From: a virus
Taxonomy: Duplodnaviria; Heunggongvirae; Uroviricota; Caudoviricetes
Length of the DNA: 10,489 nucleotides
Direction: 5' to 3' (one strand)
IMG/VR virus record: IMGVR_UViG_2703718820_000012
Span: 1 to 10,489 of that record
This document shows, piece after piece, positions 3,719 to 10,489 of the stretch (its first letter is position 1; each line of letters starts with the position of its first letter). Below the pieces are notes generated by a model. The model ran no database searches, was not told the DNA's origin, and saw only the letters and a list, made by a program, of their open reading frames with translations. Made by a program: the position numbers and the translations under genes.

Positions 3719-4933
3719 ATGTATATGTCGGTTTTTCATAACTGGCTGCTTGATATCGCAAGCGGGAATTACTTTATCTACATCAAACGCCTTTCTGCAA
3801 ACGACACAGGCGCAACAGGTGGCCATCAGGTCGGACTTTATATCCCCTCAAATATCGTTGAAAAGCTTTTTCCATCAATCAATCATACTCGCGAACTGAA
3901 CCCTTCAGTCTTCCTTACTGCGCATGTATCATCCCATGATTGCCCTGATACCCAAGCACGCGCAATTTATTACAACAACCGTTATTTTGGTAAGACCCGA
4001 AACGAAAAAAGAATTACGCGCTGGGGGAGAGGAAGTCCATTACAGAACCCTGAAAATACAGGAGCCCTCACAATTCTTGCTTTCAGGTTAAACGAACAGA
4101 ACACTGACTGTTCCGAGGTAGATATATGGGTCTGCGTCAATCCCGATGAAGAGGATATCATCGAGTCTGCTATTGGCGAAATCATACCTGGAACCCTAAT
4201 TTCCGGCCCTGCCGGACAAATTTTGGGCGGATTGTCTCTTCAGCAAACTCCAGTAAATCATAAATATGTTATTCCTGAAGACTGGAAGAAGCGTTTTCCT
4301 TCTGGAAACGAAATTATTCAATATGCTGCTGGCCATTATGCTAAAAACTCCAAGGATCCAGATGAGCAACTGATTGACCGTCGGCGTGTCGAGTATGATA
4401 TTTTTCTACTCGTCGAGGAATTACATGTTCTTGATATTATTAAGAAAGGATTCGATTCTGTAGATGAGTTTATTGCATTAGCCAACTCTGTCAGTAATCG
4501 ACGTAAATCAAGGGCAGGCAAATCACTTGAACTTCACCTAGAGAAGCTTTTTATCGAGCACGGACTACGGCATTTCTCCACTCAGGCAGTTACTGAAGGT
4601 AATAAAAAACCAGATTTCCTGTTTCCTTCAGCAGAGGCATATCATAACGTTGAATTTCCTGTAGAAAACTTACGTATGCTGGCAGTAAAGACCACCTGCA
4701 AAGATCGCTGGCGTCAGATACTGAATGAAGCAGATAAAATCCATCAGGTACATTTATTTACACTGCAAGAAGGTGTTTCTTCAGCACAATACCGAGAAAT
4801 GAAAGATGCGGGTGTCAGACTCGTTGTACCATCAACTTTACATAAAAAATACCCAGAAGCAGTTAGAGAAGAATTAATAACGCTCGGAGCATTCATTACT
4901 GAGCTGATAGAGCTTTACGCTGAACTATCATAG
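3719..4933 (+). CDS. ecoRIIR: Type IIE restriction endonuclease, EcoRII family (CCWGG)
   Basis: 404-aa ORF whose N-terminus (M-Y-MSVFHNWLLDIASGNYFIYIKRLSANDTGATGGHQVGLYIP…) I recognise as EcoRII; the length matches my recollection of R.EcoRII. It is convergent with a Dcm-like methyltransferase, as in the EcoRII system. Start ambiguity: ATG 3719 has a poorly spaced SD, ATG 3725 has AAGGGA at 5 nt. Confidence 0.85.
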   Translation: MYMSVFHNWLLDIASGNYFIYIKRLSANDTGATGGHQVGLYIPSNIVEKLFPSINHTRELNPSVFLTAHVSSHDCPDTQARAIYYNNRYFGKTRNEKRITRWGRGSPLQNPENTGALTILAFRLNEQNTDCSEVDIWVCVNPDEEDIIESAIGEIIPGTLISGPAGQILGGLSLQQTPVNHKYVIPEDWKKRFPSGNEIIQYAAGHYAKNSKDPDEQLIDRRRVEYDIFLLVEELHVLDIIKKGFDSVDEFIALANSVSNRRKSRAGKSLELHLEKLFIEHGLRHFSTQAVTEGNKKPDFLFPSAEAYHNVEFPVENLRMLAVKTTCKDRWRQILNEADKIHQVHLFTLQEGVSSAQYREMKDAGVRLVVPSTLHKKYPEAVREELITLGAFITELIELYAELS

Positions 4934-4938
4934 GCTGA

Positions 4939-4961
4939 CTCCCGGCTTAAAAGGCCGGGAG
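4939..4961. terminator. Inter-convergent hairpin, possible bidirectional terminator between R and M genes
   Basis: CTCCCGGC (4939-4946) / GCCGGGAG (4954-4961) perfect 8-bp stem with 7-nt loop, inside the 34-bp gap between the two stop codons. No clear T-tract. Confidence 0.4.
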
Positions 4962-4967
4962 ATGTTC

Positions 4968-6401
4968 TCAAGGCTGCCCAGTCTTACCAGCATCAGCAGA
5001 AACAGCTTTGAGGATATAGGGTTCCAGAAGTCTGGCAACAGCTTCAAATACTGGCACCACAACTGAGTTACCGAACTGCCGATATGACTGAGTATCTGAA
5101 ACCGGAATACGGAATGGTTTCCCTCCAGGTTTTTCAAATCCCATAAGGCGTGCACACTCTCGGGGAGTCAGCCTGCGTGGTCGACGAGCCTGATTACTCT
5201 CATTCATAAAGTCAGCCTCTCCCGTTGCCATATCCCAACCACGATCAATAAGAATTTCTGATCCGTCTTTGTGATATCTGGCAGAAAGTGTGCGTGCAAT
5301 GCTTTCCTTATTCTCAGGATTGACCAACCCAAAGCCAAAACCATTCCCCTTGGCTGCATGCTTTTTGGCGTAGTTATAAAGGTACTCCCATAGTTTTGGC
5401 GTAAGTATATATTTACTGTCGACTACAGGCTCCAGCAATTCACCAAATGATGGGCGGTGTTCCGGATAAAAACGACTGATATCACGCAAGGTAAACCCCT
5501 TGTGAATATTCAGATCTCGTCTAAATCCGACCAGAACAATGCGTTCACGATGCTGAGGCAAAAAATGCTTCCCATCGATAATCTTTGGATCGTTTTTTCC
5601 CATTTCTGCAGCATCGGCAACTTCGTAGCCCAGCTCGTCAAGGGTCTCCATAATCACTTTGAAAGTTTTACCCTTATCATGGCTCTTCAGATTTTTGACA
5701 TTTTCCAGCACAAAAATTGCCGGTTTTTTTGCTCGTATAATACGTGCCACGTCAAAAAAAAGTGTTCCTTGTGCTTCACATTCAAAACCATGCGCACGAC
5801 CAAGTGAGTTTTTCTTACTAACACCAGCAAGGCTAAATGGCTGGCACGGGAACCCCGCAAGAAGCACATCATGATCCGGCACATGCTCATCAATATATGC
5901 ATAAGCATCCGTTTCCAATACATCGGTTTTATCACTCAGCGTGACTTCCCGAATATCGAGATTGAATTTATGCACCTGTTCATCGTTAAACCAGTTGGCT
6001 TTGTATGTACGCACAGCATCTTTATTCCATTCACTGGTAAAAACACACTGGCCTCCAATGGCCTCAAAACCTTTCCGTATCCCTCCAATTCCAGCAAATA
6101 AGTCAATGAAGCGGAAAGCATATTCCGGATGGTTTGCAGGTGGTTCTGGTAGCATCTTACGCAGAAGAGACTCTTCTACTGAAGTCAACGATTTTGGTAA
6201 ACACTTGCCATTAATCCAGCGGTTAATGGTTTCACGGCTCCACTCATTTTTTCCGACTTTTCTCAGTAATTCAGCCACATACTTCTGATCATAGATTTCC
6301 AGCACTTTCTCGATAAGCTTTTTATCATTTTCCTGTCGCAGCTTTTCTTCCGCCTCGGCTTCCTTCAGCAGATGCTGTGCCAACACTTCAAATTCAGACA
6401 T
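4968..6401 (-). CDS. ecoRIIM: DNA (cytosine-5)-methyltransferase, M.EcoRII/Dcm family
   Basis: C5-MTase motifs: [32 protein letters not shown]-terminal [10 protein letters not shown]; strongly collinear with E. coli Dcm as I recall it. Start placed at the Met 15 codon (ATG at 6399-6401, GGAGG RBS with 4-nt spacer), giving 477 aa; the track's 491-aa start at 6443 has no RBS. Confidence 0.85.
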
Positions 6402-6762
6402 AATTCCTCCAAGGGGTCTAATGGGTGAAACTTTATCACTCATTCAACCCAGAAGGAAATGTTTTATCTGGATATTTAAACAGTGACTACAACGTAATCT
6501 AGCACTGGTGATGCTTTGTTAGGCATAGAGAATCATTCTATATACGACTAATGACAGAAAAACAGCAGACAAGTAGTTTGTTCATAAATTAACGCATACT
6601 ATGTGTCTACGGTTTTCGAGACCGGTCCAATCATCAAACGAAACATAAAATTAGCTCACATTATGAGGAAAAGTATCTTTTTTGTACTATGTAAATTCAA
6701 AGGCTTAGCCTCATTTCTCCGATGGTTTTCTCAACACTACTGGTTGTGAGCCCTTGCAATGA

Positions 6763-7581
<819 letters not shown>

Positions 7582-7603
7582 GTCTTTAAGTGATAAGCAT
7601 AAA

Positions 7604-7642
7604 CCGCAGCACGATCTTCTTCCATACGACGTGCTACGGTTT
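7604..7642. terminator. Possible bidirectional terminator hairpin between convergent GIY-YIG and invertase genes
   Basis: CCGCAGCACG (7604-7613) / CGTGCTACGG (7630-7639), one mismatch, 16-nt loop, AAA upstream and TTT downstream. The long loop makes this weak. Confidence 0.3.
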
Positions 7643-8196
7643 CATTTATCTCCGACCGGAAACTTCTTATACAGTGTCGATATACCAACATCATAGATGA
7701 TCGCCACCTTCTGGCGAGGAACGCCTGATGCAATTAATCGCCCGGCCTGCGCCCATTGTTCTGGTGTAAGTTTGGGACGACGTCCACCAATTCGTCCCTG
7801 TGCGCGAGCAGCTTCCAGTCCAGCTTTTGTTCGTTCAACAATCAGTTCTCGTTCCATTTCAGCCAGGGCACCCATCACATGAAAGAAAAAACGCCCCATC
7901 GGTGTGCTGGTATCAATAGCATCCGTCAGACTGCGAAAATTAACGCCACGTTCGCGCAACTCCTCAACCAGAATGACCAGATGCCGCATACTACGCCCCA
8001 GCCGATCCAGCTTCCAGACAACCAGAGTGTCACCTGCCGATAATGTCCTGAGCAGTTTTTTCAGTCCCGGCCTTTCGGACTTTGTACCGCTTATCTTGTC
8101 TTCAAAAATCAGCTCGCATCCTGCACAGTTCAGCGCATTACGTTGTAGATCTGTGTTCTGGTCATTTGTTGATACGCGTACATAGCCAATAAGCAT
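7642..8196 (-). CDS. Serine-recombinase DNA invertase, Pin/Gin/Cin/Hin family
   Basis: From the internal Met: MLIGYVRVSTNDQNTDLQRNAL…GDTLVVWKLDRLGRSM…MGRFFFHVMGALAEMERELIVERT…GRIGGRRPKLT…, the catalytic Ser region and C-terminal HTH typical of Gin/Pin. Start set at ATG 8194-8196 (185 aa); the 12-codon upstream extension in the track is not supported. Confidence 0.85.
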   Translation of the reverse strand: MLIGYVRVSTNDQNTDLQRNALNCAGCELIFEDKISGTKSERPGLKKLLRTLSAGDTLVVWKLDRLGRSMRHLVILVEELRERGVNFRSLTDAIDTSTPMGRFFFHVMGALAEMERELIVERTKAGLEAARAQGRIGGRRPKLTPEQWAQAGRLIASGVPRQKVAIIYDVGISTLYKKFPVGDK

Positions 8197-8250
8197 GGTA
8201 GATCCCCCTGACAAAAGCAGGAATGATGCCATCTGCTCGTTATTTCTGCA

Positions 8251-8276
8251 TTTTCATAAACGTTGGTTTGGGAGAA
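8251..8276. repeat. Left inversion crossover site (hix/gix/pix-like 26-bp site, TT core at 8263-8264)
   Basis: TTTTCATAAACG-TT-GGTTTGGGAGAA; inner half-site identical to the right site; AAACN-NN-GGTTT architecture. Confidence 0.7.
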
Positions 8277-8630
8277 GCGGCAAAACGGAATGTAGGTAAC
8301 GGGCAAAACCAAATTCCGGATATGGCGGCGTTTGCCAGTTCACTTTCATCAACGGGTTTTCAAAAACTCCCTTCAGGTCTGATTATTCAGTGGGGTATTG
8401 TCAGTGGAGCATCAAACTATACGGTGACTTACCCGGTAACATTCCCAAATCGTTCACTTGCGCTGTTGGCTGTGCCACATACAACGTCGGTGGCTGGTAT
8501 ATCTGCAATGGGCATAGCGAACTGTTCTGATATCAGCAAATCACAGTTCTATATAATTGTTGGCGGTATATCTCAGGGAGAAATTGTCAAATATGAAAGG
8601 TCCTGTTTTTGGGTAGCAATCGGTGTATAG
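8265..8630 (+). CDS. Silent alternative tail-fibre C-terminal (receptor-binding) cassette
   Basis: Begins [20 protein letters not shown]…, paralleling [20 protein letters not shown] in the expressed fibre. It would be fused in frame to the constant part after inversion; the ATG at 8223 is fortuitous. Confidence 0.6.
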   Translation, partial: GLGEAAKRNVGNGQNQIPDMAAFASSLSSTGFQKLPSGLIIQWGIVSGASNYTVTYPVTFPNRSLALLAVPHTTSVAGISAMGIANCSDISKSQFYIIVGGISQGEIVKYERSCFWVAIGV

Positions 8631-8638
8631 GTATATCT

Positions 8639-9034
8639 ATGATTTATTTCTCAAAATCGACTAATGGTTTTTTCTTTGATGGTATAAACAGCGACATGCC
8701 TGCTGACATTGTTGAGATAAGTACAGACTTATACAATGAATTAATTGCCGGACAGCAGGAAGGGGGGAAATTAATCACGTCAGATGAAAATGGTTTACCG
8801 GTACTGAAATCTCCGGCGATTGATTATGTCGCACGTGCTGAAAATCAGCGAATGCAGTTACTTGCTCATGCCGATAATGTCACAGCTGACTGGCGGGTGG
8901 AATTAATGCTTGGTGATATCAGCAGTACAGATAAAGAAAAACTATCTGCCTGGATGGACTACAAAAAAGAAGTAAAAGCCGTCGACACTTCGACGGCTCC
9001 TGAGATTAGCTGGCCTGAGTTACCGGAGGTGTAG
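8639..9034 (+). CDS. Tail fibre assembly protein (alternative copy, Tfa/U' type)
   Basis: MIYFSKSTNGFFFDG…[17 protein letters not shown]; the C-terminal motif is typical of Tfa/gpU chaperones. ATG at 8639 preferred over the TTG at 8609. Confidence 0.7.
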   Translation: MIYFSKSTNGFFFDGINSDMPADIVEISTDLYNELIAGQQEGGKLITSDENGLPVLKSPAIDYVARAENQRMQLLAHADNVTADWRVELMLGDISSTDKEKLSAWMDYKKEVKAVDTSTAPEISWPELPEV

Positions 9035-9425
9035 GCCATTCAATATCTGGCGCACCGGAAGTATCGACCAGTTCCAGTGCGTCCAGGTAATCCAGCCACA
9101 AATTATATTGTGCCAGTTCCTCACCTTTCAGCCGGCCAATAGCCGCTTTACCAGGCCATTGTTTACTGTTCATATAATCGTTGGCCTGTTCAATAAGTAT
9201 ATTTTTCATTCCCTCCGCTTCAGCTATTTCCTGTTCATGTGTCTTCGCTGGATATTCAGTAAGTACAGGGTAGTTATCCGGGCTATTGATAATAATTTTC
9301 CCCGTACTCTGACCATTCATAAGTTCATAATAAAGAGCATCTTCAATATCGAAAGCATCATCGGGAATATCGCTGTTGTTTTCAGAGAAAAATCCCTGAA
9401 CAGATGGGGACCATTTCATTTTCAT
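9006..9425 (-). CDS. Tail fibre assembly protein (Tfa/U type, currently in expressed orientation)
   Basis: [16 protein letters not shown]…[16 protein letters not shown]. Start ATG overlaps the stop of the upstream fibre gene (ATGA coupling at 9422-9425); 3' end overlaps the other tfa by 29 bp. Confidence 0.75.
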
Positions 9426-10489
9426 AATTTCCCAATTCCTAAAATATGGACATCATCAGCCTTACGGGCATTCCAGGTGACAATTACATCGGTAGAGTGA
9501 CGATTAACTGAGATTGCGTATGCTTCGTTAGTCGAGCCAGAAACTTTTGTGGCAAACACAGCAAACAGGACACCAAATGACTGGGGCCATTTATAGCCTG
9601 ACAGCTGATAATTACCATTATCCAGTGTTACAGCTTTGACTGCTGCACTTGATGGAATCGTCAGCCACTGGAGTATCAACCCTCCTGGCAAAAGTTGTTT
9701 TCCATAAAAATCCCTCACACCACTAAATGAAACCATATCCGGTATCTGATTTTCCCCTGTTCCCACGTCCCGTTTTGCCGCTTCTCCCAAACCAAGGTTT
9801 TCGAGAGCCGTTTGCACAGTGCCATCCGATTTGATATCGCCAAACGGATTCTTGCGGCTTAACAGCAGCGCACGAAGTGCGGTAAGCATCTGGTCATGCC
9901 GCCCTTTCTCCAGGCTGGCACCGGAGGCCTCCACCACGCTACAAAGTTCTTCCTGCAACATGTCAAAGTAGTCATCATCCAGATCGGTGGCAGGTGTGCC
10001 GGTCTGGGGGTTACCACGGGTATCCGGTTTGTCGGTGTTACTGCCCTGACCGTTCTCTCTGTGACGATGCCCGTTATAGGCAAGCCGCATCGCTGACATG
10101 GTGGTGCCGCCGGAGTCGCACAGGTCTTTCACCTGTCCGGTCACTTCCAGGTCCATTTCAAAACGTGCTTCAGGTGCATTGCGAAACGTGATCGTTTTAC
10201 CTGCACCGTCCACCACGATCCCCTCCCGGGTCAGCGTCACGGACTGCCCCTGATCGTCATAGACAGCCACCTCGCCCGTCTGCAGCCCTTTCAGGCGGTA
10301 GCGACGGTCCGACACCGTAACAACCACCGCATGAGAACGGTCGCCATCCGGAAACAACACCACCGCTTCCGCACCGCTGTTTGCCCTTGCGGTAAAACCG
10401 TAGGGTTCAAGATGTTCAACCCCGGCTTTGGGTTCACCGGCAATCAGGGACACATCCACGGTCTGTAGTGGCACACTAAATTTGGCCAC
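9422..10489 (-). CDS. Phage tail fibre protein, 3' portion (constant region plus currently fused variable tip); 5' end beyond window
   Basis: Open frame from the window edge to the stop at 9422-9424. The constant/variable junction at [13 protein letters not shown] coincides with the right crossover site. The upstream part (…FPDG…DSGGTT…HRH…) loosely resembles baseplate-spike (gpV-like) proteins, but this is tentative. Confidence 0.65.
9782..9807. repeat. Right inversion crossover site (hix/gix-like, AA core at 9794-9795)
   Basis: TTCTCCCAAACC-AA-GGTTTTCGAGAG; about 21 of 26 positions match hixL (TTCTTGAAAACCAAGGTTTTTGATAA) as I recall it. Confidence 0.7.

Follow-up and report, generated by a model that had tools for sequence, protein, structure and literature searches.

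The DNA analysed here (the window, 10,489 nt) carries a serine invertase gene and an inverted pair of hix-like sites, which enclose two alternative tail-fibre tips. The earlier note on this DNA regarded the arrangement as a switch of phage host range, and found it of special interest for the defence genes beside it. The question is whether this switch is still in working order and, if so, whether it still serves a phage. The features that bear on the answer are collected in Table 1.

Table 1. Features of the inversion locus and its flanks, in window coordinates
Feature	Position	Strand	Basis or remark
PD-T4-3, GIY-YIG defence gene	6808–7581	+	PADLOC PD-T4-3 1.1e-139, full length; Pfam LEM-3_GIY-YIG
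pin, serine DNA invertase, catalytic domain and C-terminal HTH	7642–8196	-	184 aa; Pfam Resolvase and HTH_7
Putative recombinational (Fis) enhancer, in pin codons 7–30	8107–8178		placed by homology to the P1 cin enhancer
Distal Fis-consensus site, coding nt 71–85, GTGCAGGATGCGAGC	8112–8126		consensus match, position conserved
Proximal Fis-consensus site, coding nt 23–37, TATCAACAAATGACC	8160–8174		consensus match, position conserved
Silent alternative tip ORF, variable part 8277–8630	8223–8630	+	Gp53-like_C 2e-15, residues 48–134
Left (pin-proximal) 26-bp crossover site	8251–8276		core TT 8263–8264; 26/26 identical to K-12 e14 pin-proximal site, L003 5606–5631
tfa', assembly chaperone for the silent tip	8639–9034	+	Caudo_TAP 1.8e-24
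tfa, chaperone of the expressed tip	9006–9425	-	Caudo_TAP 3e-22
Expressed tip, now in frame with the constant part	9422–9781	-	frame continues after ...GLGEAAKR
Right 26-bp crossover site	9782–9807		core AA 9794–9795; reverse complement 26/26 identical to K-12 e14 site, L003 3779–3804
Fibre constant-part remnant, Stf residues 22 to ~93	9808–10021	-	collinear with strain DAM prophage only up to 10022
Truncated Mu gp45-like baseplate gene, residues ~30–176	10022–10463	-	Phage_Mu_Gp45 5e-20
Left terminal inverted repeat, IS3-family element	10464–10489	+	TGTAGTGGCACACTAAATTTGGCCAC, identical to one end of the IS3-family element annotated in L029

Invertase, enhancer and crossover sites

The presence of a serine invertase was confirmed by a Pfam profile search (Resolvase, 8.9e-52; HTH_7, 5e-13), and its proposed length was corrected from 185 to 184 aa. 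The ORF at 7642–8232 on the minus strand encodes 196 aa counted from the first ATG, and the start MLIGYV (8196), which is common to all homologues, gives 184 aa. Alignments bore out the Pin/Gin-type assignment, with protein identities of 95% to Escherichia coli K-12 PinE, 80% to Cin and 77% to Gin. The first 107 nt of pin, enhancer stretch included, are those of pinE, and the identical Pin protein was present in nearly 3,000 blocks of a public protein collection.

Pin aligned over its full length with the Gin structures 3UJ3 and 4M6F (E ~1e-93). Ser9 is the catalytic residue, and mutation of H106 or M114 leads to Fis independence. In comparison with the two structures, Ser9, His106 and Met114 of Pin were all wild-type. 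The protein has the composition of a small serine recombinase, namely an N-terminal catalytic domain with the Ser9/10 nucleophile and a C-terminal HTH. In Hin, contact with Fis or the enhancer is made by Q151, R154, L155, K47, K/R48 and K/R51 (PMC3798978), and their equivalents in Pin were all present (Q150, R153, L154, K46, K47 and R50).

A Fis-dependent enhancer was expected in the 5' part of the gene, and a search of 8050–8150 had been proposed. We located the stretch through the annotation of the P1 GenBank record, which places the cin enhancer at cin nt 19–90. The corresponding stretch of pin lies in the expected part of the gene, but the proposed search range covers only part of it. It was identical to pinE at 72/72 positions, to cin at 57/72 and to gin at 55/72. 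Scoring with the Fis consensus, (G/T)NNYRNN(A/T)NNYRNN(C/A), gave two matches at equal positions in pin, pinE, cin and gin, with their centres 48 bp apart. The enhancer of Johnson, Glasgow and Simon (1987) reportedly has its two Fis sites spaced at about 48 bp. In the Hin/Gin/Cin/Pin family, the enhancer lies some 100 bp from the nearer crossover site. Here the proximal match is 96.5 bp from the left crossover site, centre to centre; the figure for Hin is 99 bp (PMC3798978).

The Fis consensus is degenerate: the first 200 nt of pin contain four matches, where chance would give roughly one or two. The enhancer stretch also showed no extra conservation, at 57/72 where the catalytic core reaches up to 60/72. 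Conservation therefore gave no independent signal, and the placement rests on positional homology. At the sequence level, a candidate enhancer with two Fis-consensus sites lies near the 5' end of pin.

Both of the inverted 26-bp sites that the earlier note had described were present. The left site reads TTTTCATAAACG TT GGTTTGGGAGAA and the right site TTCTCCCAAACC AA GGTTTTCGAGAG; as its reverse complement, the left site is TTCTCCCAAACC-AA-CGTTTATGAAAA. Each is made up of two 12-bp half-sites around the same 2-bp core, and both can be aligned to gix and cix. The inner half-site together with the core (TTCTCCCAAACCAA) had exactly two matches in the window, in inverted orientation, where 0.12 would be expected by chance. 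The inverted repeat reaches inward, spanning 68 nt at 84% complementarity (8258–8325 and 9733–9800). Inversion at the e14 sites, to which both are identical, has been demonstrated experimentally (PMC12529663).

The invertible segment and its tips

The segment between the crossover sites is 1,531 bp long and holds two tips and two chaperone genes in mirror order. The ORFs were as previously described; the silent tip matched Gp53-like_C, and both chaperone genes matched Caudo_TAP. The two tips part company after about 45 aa, and tfa and tfa' are only 33% identical. The two chaperone genes converge with an overlap of 29 bp, and a terminator-like hairpin (9001–8974, minus strand) lies just 3' of the tfa stop codon. 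Inversion was simulated within the window and kept the frame uninterrupted (353 aa versus 355 aa). Both alternative C-terminal tips, each with its own chaperone, were in frame after inversion.

These parts suggest the following course of inversion. Pin dimers would bind the two crossover sites, and Fis, bound at the two sites in the 5' part of pin, would assemble the invertasome, as in the Hin, Gin and Cin literature. By the same analogy, all four strands would be cleaved at the AA/TT core and the segment inverted by a 180-degree rotation of the subunits. The upstream constant frame would thereby be joined to the other C-terminal tip and its cognate chaperone gene.

Decay of the fibre gene and inversion among relatives

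In a viable temperate phage, such a segment would be a working host-range switch, and the progeny would carry one of the two receptor-binding tips. The architecture is that of Mu G, P1 C and e14 P. In intact relatives, the same switch adjoins a complete module of Mu-like tail and baseplate genes, and the sequenced phage vB_EcoM-689R6 has an invertase that is 97% identical.

On the other hand, the genes that such a phage would need in this position were found to be damaged. A deletion of 2,127 bp joins fibre codon 22 in frame to gp45, with a 2-bp TA microhomology at the junction. The first 21 fibre codons were lost, together with the baseplate genes gp46, gp47 and gp48. An IS3-family element truncates gp45 at 10464. 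A 34-nt query that holds the 26 nt of the IS end (10456–10489) gave multi-copy matches in 3,644 genomes.

The gp45-fibre junction was present in none of 5,426 complete E. coli genomes, and for this reason an assembly artefact was considered. The identical junction was found in two independent assemblies, L016 and L017, whose contigs end 2–3 nt before the IS end. This recurrence of the lesions ruled out an artefact.

The constant frame is an in-frame gp45/fibre chimera and no longer a working fibre gene. The expressed tip is indeed fused in frame, as the earlier note had it, but the gene that carries the switched tip is not an intact fibre gene. With the fibre gene wrecked, a switch of phage host range by this segment was unsupported, and that reading no longer applies at this locus; we consider a viable phage highly improbable. 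The window ends at 10489, and the rest of the prophage could still be present past the IS. We interpreted the locus as an e14-type Pin inversion system. Since the constant frame offers no working fibre gene, the switch most likely persists, still active, as a relic of a decayed prophage, in the manner of K-12 e14.

The activity of the switch was examined by comparing relatives, and statements on orientation were limited to loci confirmed by BLAST collinearity. A 36-nt junction pattern was also tried as an orientation caller and was rejected, because L025 and other prophage variants at a greater distance gave ambiguous calls.

The near-clonal strains DAM and ANT were identical over 18,520 bp, except that the Pin-switched segment (8787–10267 in that comparison) was the exact reverse complement. 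L027 and L028, which are two overlapping ends of one contig, were in opposite orientations. L016 and L017, both with the deletion junction, were 99.92% identical in the flanks (7 mismatches in 11.5 kb) and had the segment in opposite orientations. That these two share the deletion and the break at the IS boundary, yet differ in orientation, indicates that the switch kept flipping after the decay.

The same comparisons bear on the possibility of a frozen relic, in which the parts look intact and no inversion occurs in this strain, with pin unexpressed or too weakly expressed. A simple scan of 7400–10489 found no sigma-70-like promoter upstream of pin, with fewer matches than in shuffled sequences. 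In K-12, moreover, the inversion fraction obtained with PinE alone is modest, and most inversion is due to other Pin paralogues (PMC12529663). PinQ and PinR act in trans there. On the other hand, L016 and L017 differ in orientation in spite of their common lesions, the inversion is the sole difference between DAM and ANT, and both orientations were found at the overlapping ends of the one contig. We consider a frozen switch very unlikely.

The comparison of relatives indicated that the segment inverts. Sequence and comparison together showed the parts of the switch to be all present and intact, and the segment to be flipped in very close relatives, those with the same lesions included. In this genome, too, the switch looks intact and still active.

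Known systems, neighbouring defence genes and a possible role

The closest likeness was to K-12 e14. The gene order there (pinE and the invertible P segment stfP-tfaP-tfaE-stfE, then mcrA) is mirror-identical, the pin-proximal stfE-type ORF has the same start, and both prophages are defective, with a defence gene after the invertase. The crossover sites and the invertase agree as described above. The system is therefore the e14 Pin (P-segment) system itself, which is already known.

The two loci also differ. The tips and chaperones of the window are unrelated or only distantly related to those of K-12: one tip was 35% identical to StfP over 84 aa, and the other matched nothing in StfP or StfE beyond the constant part. 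The e14 segment is 1,797 bp long, longer than that of the window. The neighbours are PD-T4-3 and EcoRII here and mcrA in e14, and the constant part, fused here to the truncated gp45, follows ymfQ in e14.

Mu (gin/G) and P1 (cin/C) share the serine invertase, the 26-bp sites with an AAACC-NN-GGTTT core, the tip-chaperone pairs in mirror order (S/U and S'/U') and an enhancer at the 5' end of gin or cin. They differ in being viable phages with intact fibre genes, and in their much larger segments of about 3 kb (Mu) and 4.2 kb (P1). In P1, it is the 3' end of cin, not the 5' end, that faces the segment.

The very same cassette was found in P2-like E. coli prophages (for example in strains MS20657, N17/N24 and LF82), at 99.9% identity over window positions 8260–9800. 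The homology breaks exactly at the crossover sites, and both orientations occurred among the strains. In these prophages, by contrast, a fibre of the P2 gpH type supplies the constant part, the P2-like tail operon is intact, and the invertase is another allele (86% protein and about 79% DNA identity).

The defence genes reported beside the switch were confirmed as PD-T4-3 and the EcoRII restriction-modification genes (endonuclease and methylase). Their presence, which had been singled out as a point of special interest, proved not to be unusual. PD-T4-3 occupies the position of mcrA in e14, and mcrA directly follows the invertase in both K-12 e14 and phage vB_EcoM-689R6. The switch sits at the end of the prophage that bears accessory defence genes. 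Scans of the whole window for tRNA, tmRNA and Rfam families gave nothing, and the stretch thus holds no att-site RNA gene.

A role of the switch in defence was suggested by K-12, in which StfE2, a protein that blocks T2 adsorption, arises when the e14 P segment inverts (PMC12529663). The window locus resembles this PinQ/StfE2 system (Kirigo et al. 2025, PMC12529663) in being a cryptic prophage with the same crossover sites, in which a short pin-proximal ORF acquires a gp53-like tip by inversion. The ORF at 8223–8630 crosses the left site in this manner. Its ATG at 8223 lies outside the segment, its start (ATGATGCC) is the same as that of K-12 stfE, and Gp53-like_C covers residues 48–134 as in StfE2. 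RefSeq annotates an equivalent CDS in strain DAM.

A domesticated, recombinase-activated switch of this kind would select by inversion which gp53-like tip is made, with either the 8223 ORF or the gp45-Stf chimera as its source. One of the products might then mask a surface receptor and block adsorption of other phages, alongside PD-T4-3 and EcoRII. The adjacent defence genes are consistent with this, as is the finding that the switch stayed intact and went on flipping after the tail genes had been destroyed.

Several observations argue against it. The tips are other proteins, distant from K-12 StfP and StfE. The 8223 ORF shows neither a promoter, in the scan of 7400–10489, nor a good ribosome-binding site. 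Retention of the switch can also be explained by recent decay: with so few mismatches between the flanks of L016 and L017, there was little time for it to erode. We therefore regard a domesticated anti-phage switch as unlikely, and the masking of a receptor by one of its products as equally doubtful. Nor does it seem probable that selection, and not chance, kept the Pin switch after the loss of the baseplate and fibre genes and that it now acts as a phase-variable anti-phage device.

As a DNA-inversion system, the locus offers nothing new, its invertase, sites and enhancer being those of e14 Pin. It has a modest value as an instance from nature in which the invertase switch outlives its phage. 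The relatives that share its lesions and carry the segment in opposite orientations fit the recent claim that the host may reuse relic switches for defence. If that were true here, a selected anti-phage Pin switch would add a third layer to a small defence island that also comprises PD-T4-3 and EcoRII. With these genes as its neighbours, the locus is a concrete place to test the claim.

The e14 Pin locus and its cargo

All the features described in the earlier note were present in the sequence. The two inverted 26-bp crossover sites were found at the same positions, with AA/TT cores (table). Across the 10.5-kb window the inner half-site plus core matched exactly twice, the copies being inverted relative to each other, where 0.12 matches would be expected. 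The inverted repeat continued inward over 68 nt, with 84% complementarity (8258-8325 and 9733-9800). The invertible segment was 1,531 bp long. Its ORFs, the tip domain and Caudo_TAP bore out the previous description of two alternative tips and two chaperone genes in mirror order. The tips parted from each other after about 45 residues, and identity between the chaperones was 33%, which indicated that these are real alternatives. Inversion at the cores in silico kept the frame open, giving 353 aa versus 355 aa within the window.

A hairpin with a 12-bp stem followed by a T-run was seen on the minus strand at 8974-9001, just beyond the tfa stop and within the 3' end of tfa' on the plus strand. 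It could plausibly terminate whichever operon runs through the segment in the present orientation. No counterpart of this hairpin was detected in the opposite direction.

The Pfam domains of pin agreed with a serine invertase. The ORF from the first ATG covered 7642-8232(-) and 196 aa. MLIGYV is the N-terminus in all homologues, which placed the start at the ATG at 8196 and corrected the earlier length of 185 aa to 184 aa. The exact protein was recorded in 2,963 blocks of a public collection. Comparison with the Mu, e14 and P1 loci, which the earlier note had proposed, gave identities of 77% to Gin, 95% to PinE of K-12 e14 and 80% to Cin; the invertase of a P2-like prophage was 86% identical.

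Both crossover sites were identical to the e14 sites at 26/26 positions. With the PinE identity, this sharpened the earlier Pin/Gin-type assignment to e14 Pin. The K-12 e14 order, ymfQ-stfP-tfaP-tfaE-stfE-pinE-mcrA, was mirror-identical to that in the window. The locus is the e14 Pin/P-segment system itself and not a mere resemblance; this inversion system is already known, and inversion at the e14 sites has been observed experimentally (PMC12529663).

The tip/chaperone cassette also occurred in P2-like prophages at 99.9% identity (window 8260-9800; 4001-5541 in the P2-like locus L002), but behind a P2 gpH-type fibre constant part and with a different invertase allele. Both orientations occurred among the P2-like copies. 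The homology with the window broke exactly at the crossover sites, so the cassette moves as a unit between unrelated tail types. Fibre-cassette exchange between unrelated phages is long established.

Defence genes adjoin the switch, as had been claimed: PD-T4-3, then an EcoRII-type endonuclease with its convergent methyltransferase (491 aa from the first ATG; called at 477 aa in relatives). PD-T4-3 is found alongside pin in many prophages of E. coli, which occupy several chromosomal sites. In K-12 e14 and phage vB_EcoM-689R6 mcrA occupies this slot, and the cargo beside the invertase varied across relatives. Accessory loci of this kind are known at prophage ends, and the slot is not particular to this switch.

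Farther away lay a convergent gene pair (1186-2673). One gene encoded a HAD-family hydrolase of 228 aa; the product of the other, 277 aa long, combined a weak dCTP-deaminase/dUTPase-like domain at the N-terminus with a hydrophobic C-terminal stretch. The pair was flanked by two copies, 85% identical, of a P4-type primase gene's 3' end (Pox_D5 domain), with repeats at 578-690/2884-2996 and 731-778/3032-3079/3211-3258. In the comparison locus L019 the primase directly abutted EcoRII, without the 2.1-kb insert. The pair had no significant PADLOC match and so may be an undescribed cassette, for cargo or defence, belonging to a P4-like satellite remnant.

Features of the inversion locus and its surroundings in the window
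Feature	Position	Strand	Remarks
EcoRII-type endonuclease and convergent C5 cytosine methyltransferase	3719-6443		beyond PD-T4-3; endonuclease 404 aa, EcoRII-N and EcoRII-C
PD-T4-3, GIY-YIG defence gene	6808-7581	+	257 aa, full length, PADLOC 1.1e-139; adjoins pin
pin, serine invertase	7642-8196	-	184 aa; Pfam Resolvase 8.9e-52, HTH_7 5e-13
Candidate Fis site, coding nt 71-85	8112-8126		consensus match common to pin, pinE, cin and gin
Candidate Fis site, coding nt 23-37	8160-8174		consensus match common to pin, pinE, cin and gin
Silent tip ORF, stfE-like	ATG 8223, across 8223-8276	+	start homologous to K-12 stfE
Left 26-bp crossover site	8251-8276		TTTTCATAAACG-TT-GGTTTGGGAGAA
gp53-like tip	8277-8630	+	inside segment
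Caudo_TAP chaperone	8639-9034	+	inside segment
Second chaperone	9006-9425	-	inside segment
Second tip	9422-9781	-	inside segment
Right 26-bp crossover site	9782-9807		TTCTCCCAAACC-AA-GGTTTTCGAGAG
IS3-family terminal inverted repeat	10464-10489		last 26 nt, TGTAGTGGCACACTAAATTTGGCCAC; identical to end of annotated element in L029

Candidate Fis enhancer

The cin enhancer is annotated at cin nt 19-90 in the P1 GenBank record. As the N-termini of Pin, PinE, Cin and Gin align without gaps, the equivalent stretch was placed at 8107-8178, where 72/72 nucleotides were identical to K-12 pinE, 57/72 to cin and 55/72 to gin. When the first 200 nt of the four genes were scanned with the classical degenerate Fis consensus, (G/T)NNYRNN(A/T)NNYRNN(C/A), exactly two positions were common to all. 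Their centres were 48 bp apart, the spacing that Johnson, Glasgow and Simon reportedly found in 1987 to be required for the Hin enhancer. The proximal centre lay 96.5 bp from that of the left crossover site, versus the native 99 bp in Hin.

The consensus is weak (pin has four matches within 200 nt) and the stretch was conserved no more than the catalytic core, so its placement rests on positional homology and not on a statistical signal. Judged from sequence, Fis would be expected to bind both candidates. The earlier note had located no enhancer and proposed a search for Fis sites in 8050-8150; that range covers part of the stretch placed here.

End-to-end alignment to Gin crystal-structure sequences found Ser9 present and His106 and Met114 wild-type. 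Changes at the latter two positions in hyperactive Gin/Hin mutants relieve Fis dependence. The Hin residues in contact with Fis and the enhancer (Q151, R154, L155, K47, K/R48 and K/R51; PMC3798978) were kept in Pin as Q150, R153, L154, K46, K47 and R50.

Prophage decay and segment inversion

The window was collinear with the intact prophage of strain DAM over 6607-10022, followed by a 2,127-bp jump to the gp45 baseplate gene. The junction (10021-10022) was in frame, with a 2-bp TA microhomology, and joined Mu gp45-like residue 176 to short tail-fibre residue 22. The fibre start, ymfQ/gp48, gp47, gp46 and the end of gp45 were lost. This junction was found in none of 5,426 complete E. coli genomes. 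It was present in two independent draft assemblies, L016 and L017 (the latter 99.91% identical to the window over 6,995 bp), and is thus real.

The gp45 homology ended at 10465, and with the IS3-family end at 10464 this indicated that gp45 was also cut at about codon 30. The L016 and L017 contigs stopped 2-3 nt short of the IS end; short-read assemblies commonly break at repeats. What looks like a 'GTG start' of the 355-aa ORF results from read-through into the IS end. With the genes in the window, the prophage cannot build a baseplate. The host-range function previously ascribed to the segment is therefore unsupported at this locus, and a viable phage with a working host-range switch is most improbable, as the fibre and baseplate lesions exclude this here.

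Orientation was compared among relatives. The loci of DAM and ANT, Lebanese seawater strains with genomes of 4,603,072 and 4,603,065 bp, were 98.3% identical to the window. Over 18,520 bp the two loci differed solely in that their positions 8787-10267 were an exact reverse complement, bounded by the shared repeat. Three loci shared the smpB-side context of part of the window (EcoRII, PD-T4-3 and pin); L017 had the window orientation, and L014 and L016 the opposite one.

In another assembly (GCA_002588135.1, PDLJ01000002.1), the ends of one 4.97-Mb contig (L027 and L028) repeated a region of about 16 kb at 99.8-99.9% identity, probably an untrimmed circular overlap. Their 1,833-bp invertible segments (6107-7939 in each) had opposite orientations, which suggests that the culture was mixed for orientation. 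Across relatives, these comparisons strongly support inversion of the segment.

A frozen relic, in which the segment no longer inverts, is unlikely, since relatives that share the lesions differ in orientation. L016 and L017 had the deletion in common, both broke at the IS boundary, and their flanks were 99.92% identical, yet their segments were opposite. The switch therefore kept flipping once the prophage had decayed. We interpreted the locus as probably an intact, Fis-dependent e14-type Pin switch, still inverting and stranded on a decayed prophage.

A possible role in defence

Inversion of the e14 P-segment in K-12 creates StfE2, which blocks T2 adsorption (Kirigo et al. 2025, PMC12529663). 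This short protein begins at the pin-proximal ATG and finishes with a gp53-like tip (PMC12529663). The window has a start at 8223 that is homologous to that of K-12 stfE, the frame from which inversion produces StfE2. It lies outside the segment, separated by 26 bp from the start codon of the divergent pin, with a frame that crosses the crossover site and a gp53-like tip behind it.

That the inversion product inhibits phage here too is nevertheless unlikely. The window tips differ from the K-12 tip proteins. Neither an obvious promoter nor a good ribosome-binding site was evident for the 8223 ORF, whose AGGA abuts the ATG. The decay also looks recent, so retention of the switch needs no selection. 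Of the rivals to a stranded but active switch, this reading is the most interesting, and it raises the question of whether relic switches are kept for defence.
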